Under the pieces are notes generated by a model, which worked only from the letters and a program-made list of their open reading frames with translations, searched no databases and was not told the DNA's origin. Shown piece after piece: positions 4,450 through 64,000 of a DNA stretch of 64,000 nucleotides; the stretch's first letter is position 1; each line of letters starts with the position of its first letter. The stretch is from Escherichia phage vB_EcoP_PhAPEC7, in sequence record NC_024790.1; one strand, given 5' to 3'. The position numbers were made by a program, and so were the translations under genes.

Positions 4450-4486
4450 GTAGCTGCCTAAATAGCCCAGCATAGTTGGGCTATTT

Positions 4487-4765
4487 GTGAAGAAACTAAC
4501 TCAACCCCACATAGGAACCATCATGGAATCTTTAGCAGCAATCCTTATTCTGTTATTTGCACTAGCTGTATACCTTATCCCTACTATTATTGCTTTTGCA
4601 CGAGGCCATGCCTCTAAGTGGGGCATTGGTGTACTCAATATCGTATTAGGCTGGTCTTTAGTCTTCTGGGTAGTAGCACTGATCTGGTCACTGTCCAACA
4701 AAGGTCAGAACCAAGTTACAAATGTAACTGTTGTTCAAACCAATGGTGGCAGTAAAGCAGAGTAA
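4487..4765 (+). CDS. Small two-pass membrane protein, superinfection-immunity-like
   Basis: Two hydrophobic helices with the motif IIAFARGH...NIVLGWSLVFWVVALIWS, resembling the Imm superinfection-immunity family. Confidence 0.4.
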   Translation: MKKLTQPHIGTIMESLAAILILLFALAVYLIPTIIAFARGHASKWGIGVLNIVLGWSLVFWVVALIWSLSNKGQNQVTNVTVVQTNGGSKAE

Positions 4766-4840
4766 CTAACTTAAGCATCATTGCATAGTGGTGCTTGTGG
4801 AAGTTACTTCCAGCTCATTGCTTATCCATCTCCTAATCCA

Positions 4841-4866
4841 AGCCCACCTAACCCGTGGGCTTTTTT
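4841..4866 (+). terminator. Rho-independent terminator
   Basis: Hairpin AGCCCAC-ctaaccc-GTGGGCT followed by TTTTTT. It lies inside the computed ORF 4781..5263, so that gene more likely starts at 4883. Confidence 0.55.
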
Positions 4867-4882
4867 AATTACAGGTACTCTT

Positions 4883-5263
4883 ATGTCAAACAGACAAAAT
4901 GGTAAGTCTATCTTATATGGACTGGACTTAAGTAAACTGGAACAAACTGCAATGCTTACTTTAGGCAAAACTATACATGACCAAGTAGAGAATGAAATAG
5001 AATCAGATGTTTATGCAGCAATGCAAGCTACTATTCTGAAAGGATGGAATATTAGATCATTTAATGCTTTCCCATACATCCCTCCCGAACCTCATCTGAA
5101 ATCTAAGGTAGACCGTATCATAGATAAGTTCTGGCTTAGCCCGTGTGACGAAATGCATCTTTACCTGGCTCAAATACAAAAGAATCCTCGTACTAAGGAT
5201 GTGTTCAAAAGCAAGAGCACTACCCATCATTACCCTTGGTATAGAAGAGGTAGCAAATATTAA
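4883..5263 (+). CDS. Hypothetical protein (start trimmed to the ATG after the terminator)
   Basis: In-frame ATG at 4883 (MSNRQNGK...) downstream of the terminator. Confidence 0.35.
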   Translation: MSNRQNGKSILYGLDLSKLEQTAMLTLGKTIHDQVENEIESDVYAAMQATILKGWNIRSFNAFPYIPPEPHLKSKVDRIIDKFWLSPCDEMHLYLAQIQKNPRTKDVFKSKSTTHHYPWYRRGSKY

Positions 5264-5706
5264 TGCGTATTCCATTCCTAAGAAAAAGGGAACGAAATCC
5301 TGTTCTTTATAATAAAGGCATAGAGGATGAGTATGAACTCAACCGTAAAGCCCGTTCCTACGCAACAAAATTGTTCATGGGTACTAACACCCCAGATAGA
5401 TTACTGGACTTTGTTTTCGAACAAGTCTTTATCATATACAGCTTAGCTATGTCTGCTGGTTCACAAGAAGTAAGTGATAAGGCAAGATATGCTCTCTGTA
5501 TGCTCCGTAAAGAGTATGAAGCCCTCATGTATGAAGACTTGTACTCCTTTAAAAAAGAAACCGCTGTAGCGTGTTCTGTGGCTCTTACTGAAGGTATAGC
5601 AGTATTACAGGAACTACCTCGTAGTGAGTTTAAGCTGGTATATGTTCAGGCCAAGAGGATTACAGAAAACCGTAGTGGTATTACCAACTATCTAAGGTCA
5701 TTCTAA
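5263..5706 (+). CDS. Hypothetical protein
   Basis: 147-aa ORF, coupled start/stop with its neighbours. Confidence 0.3.
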   Translation: MRIPFLRKRERNPVLYNKGIEDEYELNRKARSYATKLFMGTNTPDRLLDFVFEQVFIIYSLAMSAGSQEVSDKARYALCMLRKEYEALMYEDLYSFKKETAVACSVALTEGIAVLQELPRSEFKLVYVQAKRITENRSGITNYLRSF

Positions 5707-58696: not shown

Positions 58697-60307
58697 TCAC
58701 ACAATGTATGAACGTAGTGGGTTAACACTATCTTCTTCTTCCTCATCCCACATCGGGTCACCCTTGTTATCCACCATAGTCATACCTGCTTGTGGCTTCC
58801 AAGGATTGAGATAACCCAGCATGGAGATAGTATCAATACAGTCATCCTTACCTTTGATTCCATTAATGGTAGCTAGTTTAATCTGGCCCATGAACAGACC
58901 CATAATAGTTGTATCTCTCAGCTCTTCCGGGAAGTACATCTTACCAACTTTGAACCATGGAACTACCAGGTTAAAGCGTGACAGCTTAGAGGTTACAGGA
59001 CGGATGCCCGGCTTACCACCCTCAGAGGATGCAAAGTTAAAGAATACATTACGGTTAATCATTTCTTTCTGAAGAAGGGAGATGAATCCACCTTGCTGTC
59101 CTGTGACCTCGACTCCAACGTTTTGAGGTTGGTATTCTTGAACCAGACGGAATAAGTCGTCAAAGTTTTTATCCATAAGCTGACGATTAGCCACACCATC
59201 AACCCAGAACCAATCTCCATTAGAACTATATGCCCAAACTGATATGACACTGTAGTCACTGGTCTGTTTCTCCGAAGTAGCAAAGTCAGTTGTAATGTAA
59301 TAGTTGTAGCAGGACTTCATCCTTAATAGTTGCTGTCTGCTGTACCATTTAATCTCGCTATCCTGAACAAGACGCTCATCTTCAGAACTAATACGAAGCA
59401 TAAGTTCCTGGTAGAAGCCAGCCAGCTTACCAGTCTTAGCTGCCATATCGTATTGGGCTTTGATGTAGTCGTAAGAGAAACGGTCATCCCATGCACCCTG
59501 AAACTCTTCTTCACTGCATGGGAACTTCTCGCATACAGGCCATACGTTCACATCCCATGCACCAGACTCAACTGCTTCTATAATAATGTCTTCCTTATTA
59601 AAGGGAGTACCATTAAAGATTACTTTACGACGGGTAGGGTCAAGAGCATGGTTCACACCTTTATAGACAGTATCCTTAATAGCTTCCATACTCGTCTTAG
59701 AGTTAGCATCACCATCACTAATCAAGTCATCCAGTACACAGAGCGTCGGACGTTTACCATATATCTTCGTACCACGAAGACCTGTCTTAGCACCAAACAA
59801 CTTAACACCCAGTCGATGTCCTTCTGCATTACGGAACTCTAACAGGTTATCTGTAAAGGTAGCTTCAGGTATCCACTGTTGAAGGAACTCACTGTTTTTA
59901 TATCGGAACTCAATGTTCTTACGTGCAGACTTAGCACCGTTATCCATTGAGTCAGATACGTAAATCATTCCTTCTACTTTCCCCAGACTTGGTAAGTGCC
60001 CAAACACTGCCAAGAACAAAGTAAAGTATTCCATGAACACAGCAGTCTTACCTGCACCACGGAAGCACAGATTAACTACATACTGGTTCGGGCTAATCAT
60101 CTTATCCAACATCTTCAGGTGAACTGGGGGTGTTTTGTTGGATTCACCTTCCTTGCCATTAACCAACTTAATAAAGTTGGCAAAGGTAAGAGCAAACTGA
60201 CTAGGAACATAGTTGGAAGAATTAAGGTGGGAGTAATCCACCTGGTCTAGCCATTCATCCAGTTCCTGCTTAATTAACTCAGACATCTGTAATGTCCTCA
60301 TCTGCAC
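58697..60307 (-). CDS. Terminase large subunit (N4 gp68-like)
   Basis: 536 aa; Walker A-like FRGAGKTA; first large gene of the late block. Confidence 0.65.
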   Translation of the reverse strand: MQMRTLQMSELIKQELDEWLDQVDYSHLNSSNYVPSQFALTFANFIKLVNGKEGESNKTPPVHLKMLDKMISPNQYVVNLCFRGAGKTAVFMEYFTLFLAVFGHLPSLGKVEGMIYVSDSMDNGAKSARKNIEFRYKNSEFLQQWIPEATFTDNLLEFRNAEGHRLGVKLFGAKTGLRGTKIYGKRPTLCVLDDLISDGDANSKTSMEAIKDTVYKGVNHALDPTRRKVIFNGTPFNKEDIIIEAVESGAWDVNVWPVCEKFPCSEEEFQGAWDDRFSYDYIKAQYDMAAKTGKLAGFYQELMLRISSEDERLVQDSEIKWYSRQQLLRMKSCYNYYITTDFATSEKQTSDYSVISVWAYSSNGDWFWVDGVANRQLMDKNFDDLFRLVQEYQPQNVGVEVTGQQGGFISLLQKEMINRNVFFNFASSEGGKPGIRPVTSKLSRFNLVVPWFKVGKMYFPEELRDTTIMGLFMGQIKLATINGIKGKDDCIDTISMLGYLNPWKPQAGMTMVDNKGDPMWDEEEEDSVNPLRSYIV

Positions 60308-60968
60308 GTACTAGTTTAGAACCAGCAATCTCTTTGGTAGGTACACCACTATTGATTGCATTGATTTGCTGTTCAGCTAATGCAGCAAGTGTTGCCTTGA
60401 GGTCAGTCAATCCAGAGTTCTCTCTTAAGTCCAGATTGATATTCGTTACCTGGTCTTTCGGTTTAGCTAAGTGAGTGAGGATAGAGTTAGCTGCATCACA
60501 CCTTACTTTCTCACTTGCTGCTGTATTCATTAGTTCAACCTGTACGTTGATAGCCTTCTGATAATTGTCCTGGTTCACAATCCACACTGGAACCAAACTT
60601 TGTTCCATGATTAGGTTAACTAACTTACCTCTGTGATAAGCAGATACGTAAGCACTAATATCTTTCTCACTGGTTCCTCGTGCTACAAGTTCTGCTTGTC
60701 GGTTGGGGAATGTCTTGAAGTAGGCTTCCTTATTCGAGTAGCCCATGTGTTTGTAAGTTACATACTGAACTGCATTCATGTAGTCCTGTGTCTTAAACTT
60801 ACCTTCCTTCATAACACCAGAGTAAGAGATGAAGTTTTCACGGAATGACTCAGCAACCAGTTGGTCTTGGGTTACGTTGTTAATCGTGTCTACCAACTCT
60901 TGGCTCACACTGTTCTTGAAGTTAGCAGGTAAGGCATTAATGATCTGCTGCTTAGTTAGCTCACTCAT
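60279..60968 (-). CDS. Hypothetical protein (N4 gp69-like; possible small terminase subunit)
   Basis: 229-aa ORF upstream of and overlapping the large terminase start. Confidence 0.3.
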   Translation of the reverse strand: MSELTKQQIINALPANFKNSVSQELVDTINNVTQDQLVAESFRENFISYSGVMKEGKFKTQDYMNAVQYVTYKHMGYSNKEAYFKTFPNRQAELVARGTSEKDISAYVSAYHRGKLVNLIMEQSLVPVWIVNQDNYQKAINVQVELMNTAASEKVRCDAANSILTHLAKPKDQVTNINLDLRENSGLTDLKATLAALAEQQINAINSGVPTKEIAGSKLVRADEDITDV

Positions 60969-61111
60969 ACTTATCTCTCTACAAAGTTATGTCTATTAAC
61001 GAAGATTCTTTTCTTGGGGTGAGATACCCCTTGAAGAAACCATACCATACAGTTACACTTTAGTCATGATATAGAAAAAGTTCATGATACTAAATAGTAT
61101 GTAATGTTCCG

Positions 61112-61429
61112 ATGACCCTATTCCCCAAGGAGTACCCCTTGAGAATCTTTATGAGAAGTCCCTCATATGAAGACAACTACTCTGAGCTAGACCACACCAA
61201 GGCTGGCTTCCTGAAGGGTGATATCATTGTCACCCATGACTGGGATACGTTCCATGAGTTATCTGGAATAATGCTATTAGAGAACCGTCCCGGTGTTACC
61301 ATCTTAGAACCACAAGAAACTTACTCTTTAGAAAGATCTATTTCATCTCTTGTGTTCTTCACAAAATTACCTCATAGTGTCTCCATCAAACGAAGCAACG
61401 ATAGCGTTCGGATGACGGTGACGATGTGA
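61112..61429 (+). CDS. Small early-region protein, paralog family member
   Basis: Shares the family motif (..IIVTHDWDTFHELSGIMLL..). Confidence 0.4.
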   Translation: MTLFPKEYPLRIFMRSPSYEDNYSELDHTKAGFLKGDIIVTHDWDTFHELSGIMLLENRPGVTILEPQETYSLERSISSLVFFTKLPHSVSIKRSNDSVRMTVTM

Positions 61430-61578
61430 TTAGTCATACCGCCTAGTAGACAGTGGCGGTACTCGTAAAGAGTTAATAACTTCTACAGTCAGAGTTCCCC
61501 GGCTCCTTTCCTACTCCGTAGGTCTAACGGTACATAAGTACCTAGGGGGATGAACTGACCCGTGATTGAAAACGGTAA

Positions 61579-61614
61579 GGGGTAGAGTCGAGAGGCTCTA
61601 CCCCATTTCTTTTT
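61579..61614 (+). terminator. Rho-independent terminator
   Basis: Hairpin GGGGTAGAG-tcgagagg-CTCTACCCC followed by ATTTCTTTTTC. Confidence 0.55.
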
Positions 61615-61630
61615 CTGGAGGTATGCAATT

Positions 61631-62029
61631 ATGAGCATCTACTTTTTTGATATTGATATTACTGGTGTACTGCGTAGACAAGAACCCCATTACTTGGGAG
61701 AACCAGAAGCAGTAAGTAAGATGCTTGCCCCATGGCAATCAGTATTCTTTCCTGACTGTGAAGAGTCCCATGAGATTATCGGTTCTCTTTTCTTATCCAA
61801 CCTTCAGCTTAACGCTGAGATACTTACTGAACCAAGGGTGTATGATCTCACTCAGTATAGTGATTTCACCAAGTTCTTCCCTGGTGTACGCTTCTATAAG
61901 ATAGACGGTTGGGAATTGATAGCTGACCATAACGTCTTTAACAAGACACTTTCCATTTACTTCAGACCTATTCCTAAAGGAAGGAGAATCAATCATGAAA
62001 TTCATAATGACCATCCCCAGTTTTGCTGA
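61631..62029 (+). CDS. Small early-region protein, paralog family member
   Basis: Family motif (..SVFFPDCEESHEIIGSLFL..). Confidence 0.4.
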   Translation: MSIYFFDIDITGVLRRQEPHYLGEPEAVSKMLAPWQSVFFPDCEESHEIIGSLFLSNLQLNAEILTEPRVYDLTQYSDFTKFFPGVRFYKIDGWELIADHNVFNKTLSIYFRPIPKGRRINHEIHNDHPQFC

Positions 62030-62309
62030 AAGGGCGCCCATGTACACAAATGACTTCACTTTAGAAGAAGTCATGGATAGTAGTTCCCAACGTGTAATAC
62101 TAGTTCCTACCTTAGAGGACTACCATGAAGTAAGGGGCCAACTCTTCTTAGTAGGTAATGACCGTAAGGTTGTATGTATTATTCCTCCTTCCATCTACCC
62201 CGTTAGTAGTGCAGATGACGCTCTACCTTTCATGATGGTGTCCGATGAATACCAGTGGAATACCCGTTATGAGAATGATGAATACCGTTACTATTACGTA
62301 AGGAAGTAA
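61995..62309 (+). CDS. Small early-region protein, paralog family member
   Basis: Family motif (..RVILVPTLEDYHEVRGQLFLVGNDRKVV..); closest to the 63615 ORF. Confidence 0.45.
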   Translation: MKFIMTIPSFAERAPMYTNDFTLEEVMDSSSQRVILVPTLEDYHEVRGQLFLVGNDRKVVCIIPPSIYPVSSADDALPFMMVSDEYQWNTRYENDEYRYYYVRK

Positions 62310-62312
62310 GCC

Positions 62313-62627
62313 ATGCACTTCTACGGTTTAAGTAGTCGTAGTACCTGTCCCCTTAATCTGGGGGTAGGTAAATCACCTTGGTTGGGAATAAGTAAACCCA
62401 TGACCATGTACTATGAACAATGTGAAAAAGCAGATGAGTTCATCGGAACCTGTTTAATGTTAGGTGTACCTATTACCTTTATTAAGATAGATGCTTCCGT
62501 TGAAGTTCCAGAGAATGTCACTGTATATATCTATTCCTCCAGTGAACCTATGGTAGCTACTACTCTTACTGGTAGGCTCATTACCCTCTATCCTTCCTCA
62601 TATTTATCTAGCGACGAGAGTCACTAA
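62313..62627 (+). CDS. Small early-region protein, paralog family member
   Basis: Family motif (..MYYEQCEKADEFIGTCLMLG..). Confidence 0.4.
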   Translation: MHFYGLSSRSTCPLNLGVGKSPWLGISKPMTMYYEQCEKADEFIGTCLMLGVPITFIKIDASVEVPENVTVYIYSSSEPMVATTLTGRLITLYPSSYLSSDESH

Positions 62628-62941
62628 TGAAGCTAAACACATCACCCTATCCGGTACAGTTAGAAGTAGTATTTGACTGGGTTATCTTCTCTAAGAAATA
62701 CAAGAAAGCTAAAGGCATTGAACCAGAGGAACAAAGTAAAGGGGTTACTACATTACTCCCCGACGGTTCGGTACTTATCTATGTACAGAATAGTAACCCT
62801 ATCACCTTGGTTCATGAACTTAATCACTTCTGCATATACACCTTTGGCTTCGTTGGATTACCAATTAATGATGAATCTTCTGAGGCGTACTGTTACTACA
62901 TGGATAGCCTTCTTAAGCAGGTACTAAAGAATGAACATTAG
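62627..62941 (+). CDS. Small early-region protein, possible divergent paralog
   Basis: Weaker match (..LIYVQNSNPITLVHEL..). Confidence 0.3.
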   Translation: MKLNTSPYPVQLEVVFDWVIFSKKYKKAKGIEPEEQSKGVTTLLPDGSVLIYVQNSNPITLVHELNHFCIYTFGFVGLPINDESSEAYCYYMDSLLKQVLKNEH

Positions 62942-63266
62942 ATATCTAGGTGAGAGAGGTTCTGATGTGGTGTACTACTGCTCTGAACCAGAGAAAGCAG
63001 TCATTCTGGTTATGTCCTATGATTCTTACACCTTAATAATGGAACCGGGAGAGTTAGCAGACTTTGCACGAGGGCATAAGCTCCTTACTAATAGCAATAC
63101 AGAGATAGTTATCTTTAACGAGGGGGATAGTTACCTTGCCCCCGAAGGTGATTGTTTCCATATCTTCTTACCAGTAAAAGTAAGAACCAGTATGGTAAGG
63201 GAAGGTAACTCCTTCAGTACTATTCGTATCATCACCAAAGCACCGTCTTACAGGAATGATGTATGA
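62931..63266 (+). CDS. Small early-region protein, possible divergent paralog
   Basis: Shares EPG and VILV segments with the family. Confidence 0.3.
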   Translation: MNIRYLGERGSDVVYYCSEPEKAVILVMSYDSYTLIMEPGELADFARGHKLLTNSNTEIVIFNEGDSYLAPEGDCFHIFLPVKVRTSMVREGNSFSTIRIITKAPSYRNDV

Positions 63267-63299
63267 CTATGATTATCACTCACTTATAAAGGACTAACC

Positions 63300-63593
63300 A
63301 TGTATGTATACTGGGTAGCATCCCCTTATGATGAAAGGATAGGTACATCCTCCATCAGAATGTTATCAGGCACGGACTGGTATAAGTTCGAACCAGGAAT
63401 AGCAACTATCTATGTACACCCCGACATTGATTATCATTTCATACAAGGTGAGTGCATCATCCTTGGTAAGAAAGCCAAGCTAATAGAGTGCCCAGATAAC
63501 TATCATATTAAAGTACGTGGAGTATACATCCTAGCTCGTGATTACAAAGCAGCATTGGAGTTACTACGGCCTAAGTATTCCCCTCCTACTTGA
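63300..63593 (+). CDS. Small early-region protein, paralog family member
   Basis: Family motif (..FEPGIATIYVHPDIDYHFIQGECIILGKKAK..). Confidence 0.45.
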   Translation: MYVYWVASPYDERIGTSSIRMLSGTDWYKFEPGIATIYVHPDIDYHFIQGECIILGKKAKLIECPDNYHIKVRGVYILARDYKAALELLRPKYSPPT

Positions 63594-63614
63594 ATAGGTA
63601 CTAAAGGATATTAA

Positions 63615-63941
63615 ATGAAAATTACTAAGATAGGTTATGCTGATGGACCTAATCCCACTATCCATACAACCTTGCAAGACCTTGAACCAGGTAGACTCAC
63701 TCCTATTATCCTAGTACCAGATGAGCAAACTCTTCATGAAGTGAAAGGTCTAGCTCTAATACTAGGCAGGAAAGTTATTGTAAAACTACAAGAACCAGGA
63801 AAGGAATTACCATGGTCCTCTTCCATGTACTCCCCCTGGCATGTGAACACGGACAAATACACTCTTACCTTCACCATGAGTGATACCCTACAATCCCCTC
63901 ATTTGGTATATGCTCCCTCCTATTTAACTGCTTATAAGTGA
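63615..63941 (+). CDS. Small early-region protein, paralog family member
   Basis: Family motif (..LEPGRLTPIILVPDEQTLHEVKGLALILGRKVIV..). Confidence 0.45.
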   Translation: MKITKIGYADGPNPTIHTTLQDLEPGRLTPIILVPDEQTLHEVKGLALILGRKVIVKLQEPGKELPWSSSMYSPWHVNTDKYTLTFTMSDTLQSPHLVYAPSYLTAYK

Positions 63942-64000
63942 GATAGTTATAATATTTTTGCATGTCAAAATTGTGATAGCTATGTATGGCTACAGTGGTG

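Follow-up and report, generated by a model that had tools for sequence, protein, structure and literature searches.

We analyzed a window of 64,000 nucleotides (nt) from Escherichia phage vB_EcoP_PhAPEC7 (NC_024790.1), the window being the whole stretch of DNA, and focus here on an array of eight small open reading frames (ORFs) at positions 61,112-63,941. The closest megablast matches to positions 61000-64000 are solely G7C-like N4-like podophages (Gamaleyavirus, Schitoviridae), with 83-92% identity and a query coverage of 54-73%. The large terminase gene (58697-60307, minus strand) lies just 5′ of the array, with a gp69-like small terminase gene (60279-60968, minus strand) between the two. 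The array itself is on the plus strand, divergent from the terminase genes and pointing to the right terminal repeat, a layout that is identical in N4, G7C, PhAPEC5, KP8, inbricus, JWDelta, and Zuri. Homologues of the array are found at the far right of the linear genome in PhAPEC5, G7C, and N4, and the G7C annotation places the beginning of the terminal repeat ~60 nt past the last array gene. Since the 3′ end of the window (...CAGTGGTG) is the beginning of the N4-type left-end sequence TGGTGGGGCT, the array takes up the interval from the terminase genes to the right terminal repeat. Its genes make up the right-end accessory cluster of a G7C-like N4-like phage. A preliminary description of this DNA had called the eight ORFs early genes by position, which is not supported, as the array lies at the right end, beyond the terminase genes and beside the right terminal repeat.

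The same description had placed eight ORFs on the plus strand. All eight are present at the coordinates it gave, and comparison with orthologues in related phages shows purifying selection on each of them (ratio of nonsynonymous to synonymous substitution rates, dN/dS, 0.05-0.6), which indicates that they are real coding genes. They are listed here with their protein families, F1-F8, which are named after ORF1-8, and with the corresponding PHROGs.

61139..61429, plus strand: ORF1, N4 gp70 homologue, family F1, phrog_7213
61631..62029, plus strand: ORF2, N4 gp71 homologue, family F2, phrog_9160, ribosome-binding site (RBS) GGAGG; first gene of the putative ORF2-8 operon
61995..62309, plus strand: ORF3, G7C gp71.1 homologue, family F3, phrog_11661
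62313..62627, plus strand: ORF4, G7C gp71.2 homologue, family F4, phrog_12099
62627..62941, plus strand: ORF5, HExNH...E protein of 104 amino acids (aa), phrog_1365; outside the paralog family
62931..63266, plus strand: ORF6, family F6, phrog_12606; most divergent and fastest-evolving member
63300..63593, plus strand: ORF7, family F7, no PHROG; orthologues are Moo19 gp4 and KP8 gp063
63615..63941, plus strand: ORF8, family F8, phrog_16338; identical (100%) to PhAPEC7 gp55; structure-modelled member

Judging from its sequence context, the probable start of ORF1 is TTG 61139, located 6 nt behind AAGGAG, or else ATG 61151; ATG 61112 has no RBS and is absent in N4 and KP8. Good Shine-Dalgarno sequences are found for ORF3, ORF4, ORF7, and ORF8. 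The starts and stops had been described as coupled; this applies to ORF2/3 (35-nt overlap), ORF4/5 (shared TAATG), and ORF5/6 (11-nt overlap), and not to ORF1, which is set apart by a 201-nt gap and a terminator. By tblastn, ORF1 shows 38% identity with N4 gp70 (E = 1e-14) and is matched in 85 phage records, including those of Klebsiella, Pseudomonas, and Achromobacter phages. The ORF2 family groups with N4 gp71 in sequence clustering. The GenBank notes of PhAPEC5 and G7C agree with the latter assignment and label the ORF1 counterparts "similar to N4 gp70". In N4, the two homologous genes follow gp69, with the same ~200-nt gap and terminator between gp70 and gp71.

Direct BLAST comparisons among the eight ORFs gave marginal similarities, too weak to decide whether these proteins are related, and family profiles were used instead. 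We built one alignment per family from the arrays of 12 related phages, with four families of small left-end proteins as controls. BLAST single linkage already joined F1, F3, and F8, and ORF3 matches the PHROG of ORF8 (E = 3e-4). In pairwise hhalign comparisons, 14 of the 28 family pairs reached P < 0.005, all in register, while each of the 50 pairs involving the ORF5 family or a control family gave P ≥ 0.049. The pairs F3-F8 (P = 1.2e-8, 74 columns), F1-F8 (P = 1.6e-6), F3-F7 (P = 1.5e-5), F2-F3 (P = 3e-5), F7-F8 (P = 7e-5), F4-F7 (P = 3e-4), and F4-F6 (P = 4e-4) all align the same segment in the same register. When each family was left out in turn and compared with the combined profile of the rest, F1-F4 and F6-F8 each matched it, always in register, with P = 2e-8 to 6e-5 (F1, 6e-5; F2, 1.2e-5; F4, 2.1e-5; F6, 2.8e-5; F7, 1.4e-6; F8, 1.9e-8). 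ORF5 gave P = 0.3 in this leave-one-out comparison with the combined family profile, no better than the controls (0.2-0.8).

A single Gly column is invariant in the MAFFT alignment of the seven window members, and it is retained in 28 of 29 proteins from seven phage lineages. A regular expression for the motif, written post hoc and therefore descriptive, matches exactly these seven ORFs among the 301 six-frame ORFs of the window, and the family hidden Markov model (HMM) detects no further copy within the 64 kb. Searches of Pfam, NCBIfam, and PADLOC returned no matches for the array proteins, and PHROGs returned only families of "unknown function". The profile comparisons thus indicate that ORF1-4 and ORF6-8 all encode a single type of small domain (~85-135 aa) and are diverged paralogs. 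The preliminary description had proposed a divergent paralog family of all eight ORFs, to be checked by alignment, HMM building, and profile-profile comparison; this check returned significant similarity for seven members, in agreement with the structure model and structural matches described below, and ORF5 has to be removed from the family.

We ran AlphaFold2 (AF2) for ORF8 on an alignment of 55 family sequences and obtained a model with a mean predicted local distance difference test score (pLDDT) of 86.3 and a predicted template modelling score (pTM) of 0.77. Its secondary structure elements follow the order β(2-5), β(16-19), β(31-34), α(37-50), β(55-58), β(75-77), β(82-87), β(96-101). According to this model, the domain is a mixed β-sheet packed against one helix, and this helix holds the sole invariant residue, the Gly of [H/D]-E-h-x-G. 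The core motif noted earlier does occur beyond chance in the seven ORFs, with its Gly in register, but its structural assignment has to be revised: HEVKG is modelled inside a single α-helix, neither strand nor turn, and the hydrophobic strand and acidic turn of the preliminary description correspond to strand 3 and the start of the helix. The His and Glu of the motif are not universal, with DE in ORF4, DF in ORF6, and other residues in Achromobacter and Zuri members. As only the Gly and the hydrophobic pattern are universal, we infer that the universally conserved positions are structural rather than catalytic.

The ORF8 model was compared by Foldseek with predicted viral structures (BFVD models). 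At E ≤ 1e-3, only proteins of N4-like phages are found, from PhAPEC5, phiG17, EC1-UPM, KP8, and OLB145; these matches include an EC1-UPM protein (E = 6e-5, template modelling (TM) score 0.7) and four proteins of Klebsiella phage KP8. At weaker E values, six Achromobacter JW/Axy proteins and four proteins of P. putida phage Zuri appear. The matched proteins are the right-end array genes of their own phages and carry the same motif. Vaccinia C7, at E = 0.12, was the sole match of the family profile against PDB sequences, and we treated it as due to chance. Comparison with solved anti-defence proteins (Ocr, ArdA, Acr, Tad, Gad, and similar) revealed no sequence or fold similarity to a characterised member.

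An HMM search of 1.84 billion representative proteins gave only 23 matches, all in the same phage families. A broad profile of 29 sequences retrieved 431 proteins; among the 120 of these that were listed, the length is 95-109 aa, no Pfam domain and no fusion is present, and the long contigs, where present, are ~70 kb. A search of IMG/VR for more diverse loci gave only G7C-like contigs, and the right ends of Erwinia Ea9-2, Stenotrophomonas Paxi, roseophage R7L, and Pseudomonas LIT1 had no detectable member. Together, these search results and absences indicate that the family is specific to part of the Schitoviridae (Enquatrovirinae, Rothmandenesvirinae, Zurivirus). Within this range, no examined relative with the family lacks gp70 or gp71, N4 and the Achromobacter and Pseudomonas phages included.

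The copy-number variation that the preliminary description had suggested looking for in related phages was indeed found when the arrays of 20 genomes were classified by family HMMs. N4 carries F1-F2, as does Pseudomonas phage inbricus on separate inspection, and G7C carries F1-F4. In most G7C-like phages, F1-F4 are joined by two or three of F5-F8, in an order that varies; F6 occurs twice in IME11, and an extra family, F9, is present in Moo19 and Jgk1. The copy number is 2 in N4, 4 in G7C, and 5-7 for the majority of relatives, and the window, with 8 genes, is the only one of the 20 genomes to have all eight. Members beyond gp70/gp71 thus differ in number and order between phages that are >85% identical. 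The array proteins also diverge quickly: for the same genome pairs, dN is 0.03-0.40 in the array and 0.004-0.013 in gp68 and gp69, so that they evolve 10-40 times faster than the neighbouring core (terminase) genes, still under purifying selection. ORF6 shows a dN/dS of 0.37-0.59. We place high confidence in the claims on the family and its evolution taken together.

The array ends in a stretch of DNA that is conserved between related genomes:

63916..64000, plus strand: right-hand array junction (conserved), CCTCCTATTTAACTGCTTATAAGTGAGATAG..., which leads into the beginning of the terminal-repeat/left-end sequence

The junction sequence of G7C-like genomes is also written CCTCCTATTTAACTGCTTATAAG. 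The same junction DNA follows whichever family is last in the array and supplies its C-terminus in three frames. It is read as ...PSYLTAYK* by F4 in G7C and F8 in the window, as ...SPPI* by F6 in NAN33P5 and Bas96, and as ...HLLFNCL* by an F8-like gene in phiG17 (locus position 5284); further junction copies occur at positions 4474 and 2516 of two other compared loci. This fixed sequence explains why F4, F5, F6, and F8 sometimes have the same tail. In the window, the 3′ end of ORF4 is a diverged copy of the junction (PSSYL...). From the shared junction behind different last genes and the diverged copy in ORF4, we conclude that genes are inserted and deleted by recombination at the junction beside the terminal repeat, which is a hotspot of gain and loss. 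Extra copies are gained, lost, and swapped at the junction, just upstream of the right terminal repeat.

In phiG17, an unrelated ORF of 120 aa (MRLIKSGGTRWVLLTRKYAIKFPIPKTW..., 4654-5016 of its locus) lies within the array, where it replaces F6/F7. This indicates that foreign genes also enter the array locus.

ORF5, which many G7C-like phages and KP8 carry in their arrays, differs from its neighbours. Its family has an invariant HExNH...SEAYCY motif, and H63, E64, H67, and E86 are invariant in 25 homologues. A confident zincin-like structure model was obtained, in which helices 58-76 and 85-99 place HExxH on the first and the Glu of the third ligand on the next, an arrangement that fits the zincin/gluzincin layout. 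Against peptidase families, neither sequence nor fold comparison gave a significant match. ORF5 is a passenger gene unrelated to the paralog family, and its product is a putative minimal zincin-like zinc metallopeptidase. It has HExxH and a downstream Glu in common with minimal zincin/gluzincin peptidases (ImmA/IrrE-like, e.g., CapP), but its match to these families is not significant.

Two non-coding regions at the start of the array are likely to bear on its expression, one upstream of ORF1 and one between ORF1 and ORF2:

61050..61138, plus strand: promoter-like block and 5′ untranslated region (UTR) of ORF1, with ACTTTAG at 61057-61063 and RBS AAGGAG at 61127-61132
61430..61630 (201 nt), plus strand: non-coding ORF1-ORF2 leader, comprising H1, TTAATAAC, H2, and a terminator
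61438-61460, plus strand: hairpin H1 of the leader
61473-61480, plus strand: TTAATAAC of the leader
61510-61522, plus strand: hairpin H2 of the leader, CCTAC-tcc-GTAGG
61579-61604, plus strand: intrinsic terminator with an 11-bp stem and a T-run to 61614, ending 17 nt before ORF2

About 70 nt of the block upstream of gp70 are near-identical in N4, KP8, Achromobacter JWDelta, and Pseudomonas inbricus, and recognisable in the G7C group. The pattern is GGTTAGACTTTAG...TTACAATAGTAAGACAGAGACA.GGGGA.CCTATTGCC.AAAGGAA, and the adjoining proteins are just 30-60% identical. The block occurs once in the genome of the window, with no second copy. We propose that this block provides ORF1 with a conserved promoter-like region and 5′ UTR of its own. 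The divergent gp69-gp70 intergenic region (60969-61050) also contains a GGGGTGAGATACCCC hairpin after a T-rich run, which is kept in the G7C group and, with changes, in N4.

The leader RNA folds with a predicted energy of -75.4 kcal/mol (z = -4.0 vs shuffled sequences) and shows 92-99.5% identity in phage comparisons in which the synonymous sites next to it differ by 20-50%. The element is found between the gp70/gp71 homologues of N4, Moo19, Jgk1, KP8, inbricus, and Achromobacter JWDelta, where the 5′ hairpin, TAATAAC...CAG, CTCC, and the terminator are kept. Compensatory changes are observed in H1 (CCGCC/GGCGG to CCCCC/GGGGG) and in the terminator stem. Rfam gave no relevant match to the leader at E ≤ 1. 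A scan for the sigma-70 consensus identified no site upstream of ORF1 or ORF2, and TTAATAAC and ACTTTAG are no more frequent in the window than expected by chance, so that neither is a recurrent promoter motif. As there is no room for a promoter after the terminator, ORF2-8 would be expressed by read-through, and we consider it reasonably likely that they form one operon reached by read-through of the leader and terminator. In the mechanism we propose, this operon, with several overlapping or abutting frames, would be gated by the structured leader and terminator, which probably set the level or timing of ORF2-8. The leader is thus a candidate leader/attenuator or small RNA.

H2 was also considered as a promoter of the virion RNA polymerase (vRNAP), and this was rejected. 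Early promoters of the G7C group, as derived from left-end loci, have the shape NNNGC-tcc-GCNNN-TTATGGA; the loop of H2 varies (TCC, CTA, CCA, TTCG) while its stem co-varies, and no TTATGGA box lies downstream. The GenBank record of Moo19 opens within the gp70-gp71 leader (1-266), so that the gp71 homologue is numbered "gp1" and gp70, at the opposite end, "gp86"; this record start is probably an arbitrary linearisation and not a physical end.

Regarding the timing of expression, N4 has its early hairpin promoters solely at the left end, the first part to be injected, and the mapped starts of N4 RNA polymerase II (RNAPII, middle) lie in the left 50% of the genome (PMC4496689). In the distant N4-like phage LUZ7, mid-infection transcripts of the Watson strand span the whole genome, including the rightmost cluster of ORFans (PMC9163698). 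By analogy, our best guess is that the array is transcribed rightward in mid-infection, as part of the middle class.

The array family proteins are predicted to be soluble and mildly acidic (acidic to neutral). The structural motif, this predicted solubility, the fast but constrained evolution, the cassette-like turnover, and the restriction to one lineage together make binding proteins the most likely type of function. We hypothesize that the paralogs would be non-enzymatic binders, each tuned to a different host target, with defence or takeover targets being the most plausible; from the sequences, a binder or anti-defence function is a tentative proposal that we hold with low confidence. Taken as a whole, the best explanation of our results, plausible though we stop just short of calling it probable, is a right-end paralog cluster with turnover at the junction and a read-through operon, which would supply mid-infection binders of host or defence components. 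That the family is a Schitoviridae-restricted superfamily without a solved fold relative, with a junction accordion and a leader-gated operon, and acts through binders neutralising defence or takeover targets, is possible but rather doubtful.

Several points weigh against this explanation. The fold is known from one AF2 model and from BFVD models, which are predicted structures throughout, and the links to Zuri and some Achromobacter proteins are weak by sequence, resting mostly on Foldseek E values of 1e-3 to 1e-1. The timing is taken from LUZ7, whose right-end ORFans are not homologous to the array genes. Finally, gp70/gp71 and their regulatory DNA are conserved across subfamilies, which is at least as compatible with a housekeeping role, be it in replication, packaging, or the control of transcription. 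The array genes might then be conserved accessory factors for replication, terminal-repeat processing, packaging, or the transcription switch, with the extra copies being sub-functionalised duplicates. Consistent with such a role, gp70/gp71 are found immediately next to both the terminase genes and the terminal repeat in all relatives with the family, few of the non-coding stretches seen are as conserved as their promoter region and leader, and the authors of the LUZ7 study proposed a replication-related role for right-end ORFans from their mid-infection timing (PMC9163698). Nevertheless, accessory factors of this kind would not be expected to vary in number and order between such close phages, as the members beyond gp70/gp71 do, nor to evolve so much faster than the terminase genes. 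Moreover, N4-like phages of Erwinia, Stenotrophomonas, and roseobacters replicate and package normally without a detectable member at this location, and the proteins, which are acidic to neutral, contain no nucleic-acid-binding or nuclease motif. We therefore regard this role as somewhat unlikely.

An early function in host takeover, with the genes transcribed at once by the injected virion RNA polymerase and shutting down host functions, appears improbable. In its favour, the genes are small ORFans that share their strand with the early and middle genes, circularly permuted records have the array running straight into the left-end early genes, and the 5-bp stem and 3-nt TCC loop of H2 (61510-61522) resemble those of vRNAP promoters. 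However, the array occupies the right end of the linear virion DNA, the part that enters the cell last, N4 early promoters are found at the left end only (PMC4496689), H2 lacks both a conserved loop and the TTATGGA box of genuine early promoters, and a strong terminator follows within ~60 nt. A coincidental or compositional origin of the shared motif, in which the ORFs would be unrelated ORFans that are merely adjacent, is very improbable. Pairwise identities of just 10-30%, the weak direct BLAST matches between window ORFs, and the distribution of the members over six PHROG families would agree with it, but it fails to account for profile-profile P values down to 1e-8 with a consistent register and clean controls, for the invariant Gly column in 28 of 29 proteins from seven phage lineages, and for the superposition of independent BFVD models of other families on the ORF8 model (TM 0.6-0.7). 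On these profile and model comparisons, an unrelated origin is effectively refuted.

The paralog cluster reading joins the N4 right-end genes with up to five further genes and unites six "unknown" PHROGs into a single experimental target, whose fold appears to be kept from coliphages to Achromobacter and Pseudomonas phages while its copy number varies. The cluster is also the fastest-evolving part of the otherwise near-identical G7C-group phages, which are therapeutic candidates, and this makes the array a prime suspect for differences in host range and defence evasion. The conserved junction offers a concrete mechanism for the gain and loss of cluster genes, and the leader and terminator are a candidate for a new cis-regulatory RNA in a phage whose transcription involves three RNA polymerases.

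In the classic model phage N4, the right-end genes gp70-72 have, to our knowledge, never been assigned a function or family. Our searches of the literature on N4 gp70/gp71, PhAPEC7, Schitoviridae anti-defence, and CRISPRi-ART gave nothing on these genes, and we found no paper that unites the array genes as one family or describes the fold, the junction, or the leader. N4 gp70/gp71 and G7C gp71.1/gp71.2 are homologues of ORF1-4 in the same position and orientation; they have been annotated and classified as unrelated hypothetical proteins, whereas our analysis predicts one fold for them. Outside phages, the host-range families of poxviruses and the multigene families MGF110/360/505 of African swine fever virus (ASFV) are also terminal, located near repeats, variable in copy number, and fast-evolving, and they counter host immunity. 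The likeness of the array to these terminal families and gene "accordions" is conceptual only, since hosts, folds, and scale are entirely different. Closer to the array, 29 small ORFans of LUZ7 form a cluster that immediately precedes the right repeat and varies between close relatives (PMC3715699, Ceyssens 2010; PMC9163698, Putzeys 2022). This cluster occupies the same niche, with small genes on the Watson strand, from the terminase genes to the right repeat, that vary between relatives, but no sequence similarity was detected, as judged on LIT1 right-end proteins against the family profile, and paralogy has not been reported for LUZ7. A variable right-end accessory cluster in N4-like genomes was already known; what this analysis adds is the paralog superfamily and the way in which it turns over.

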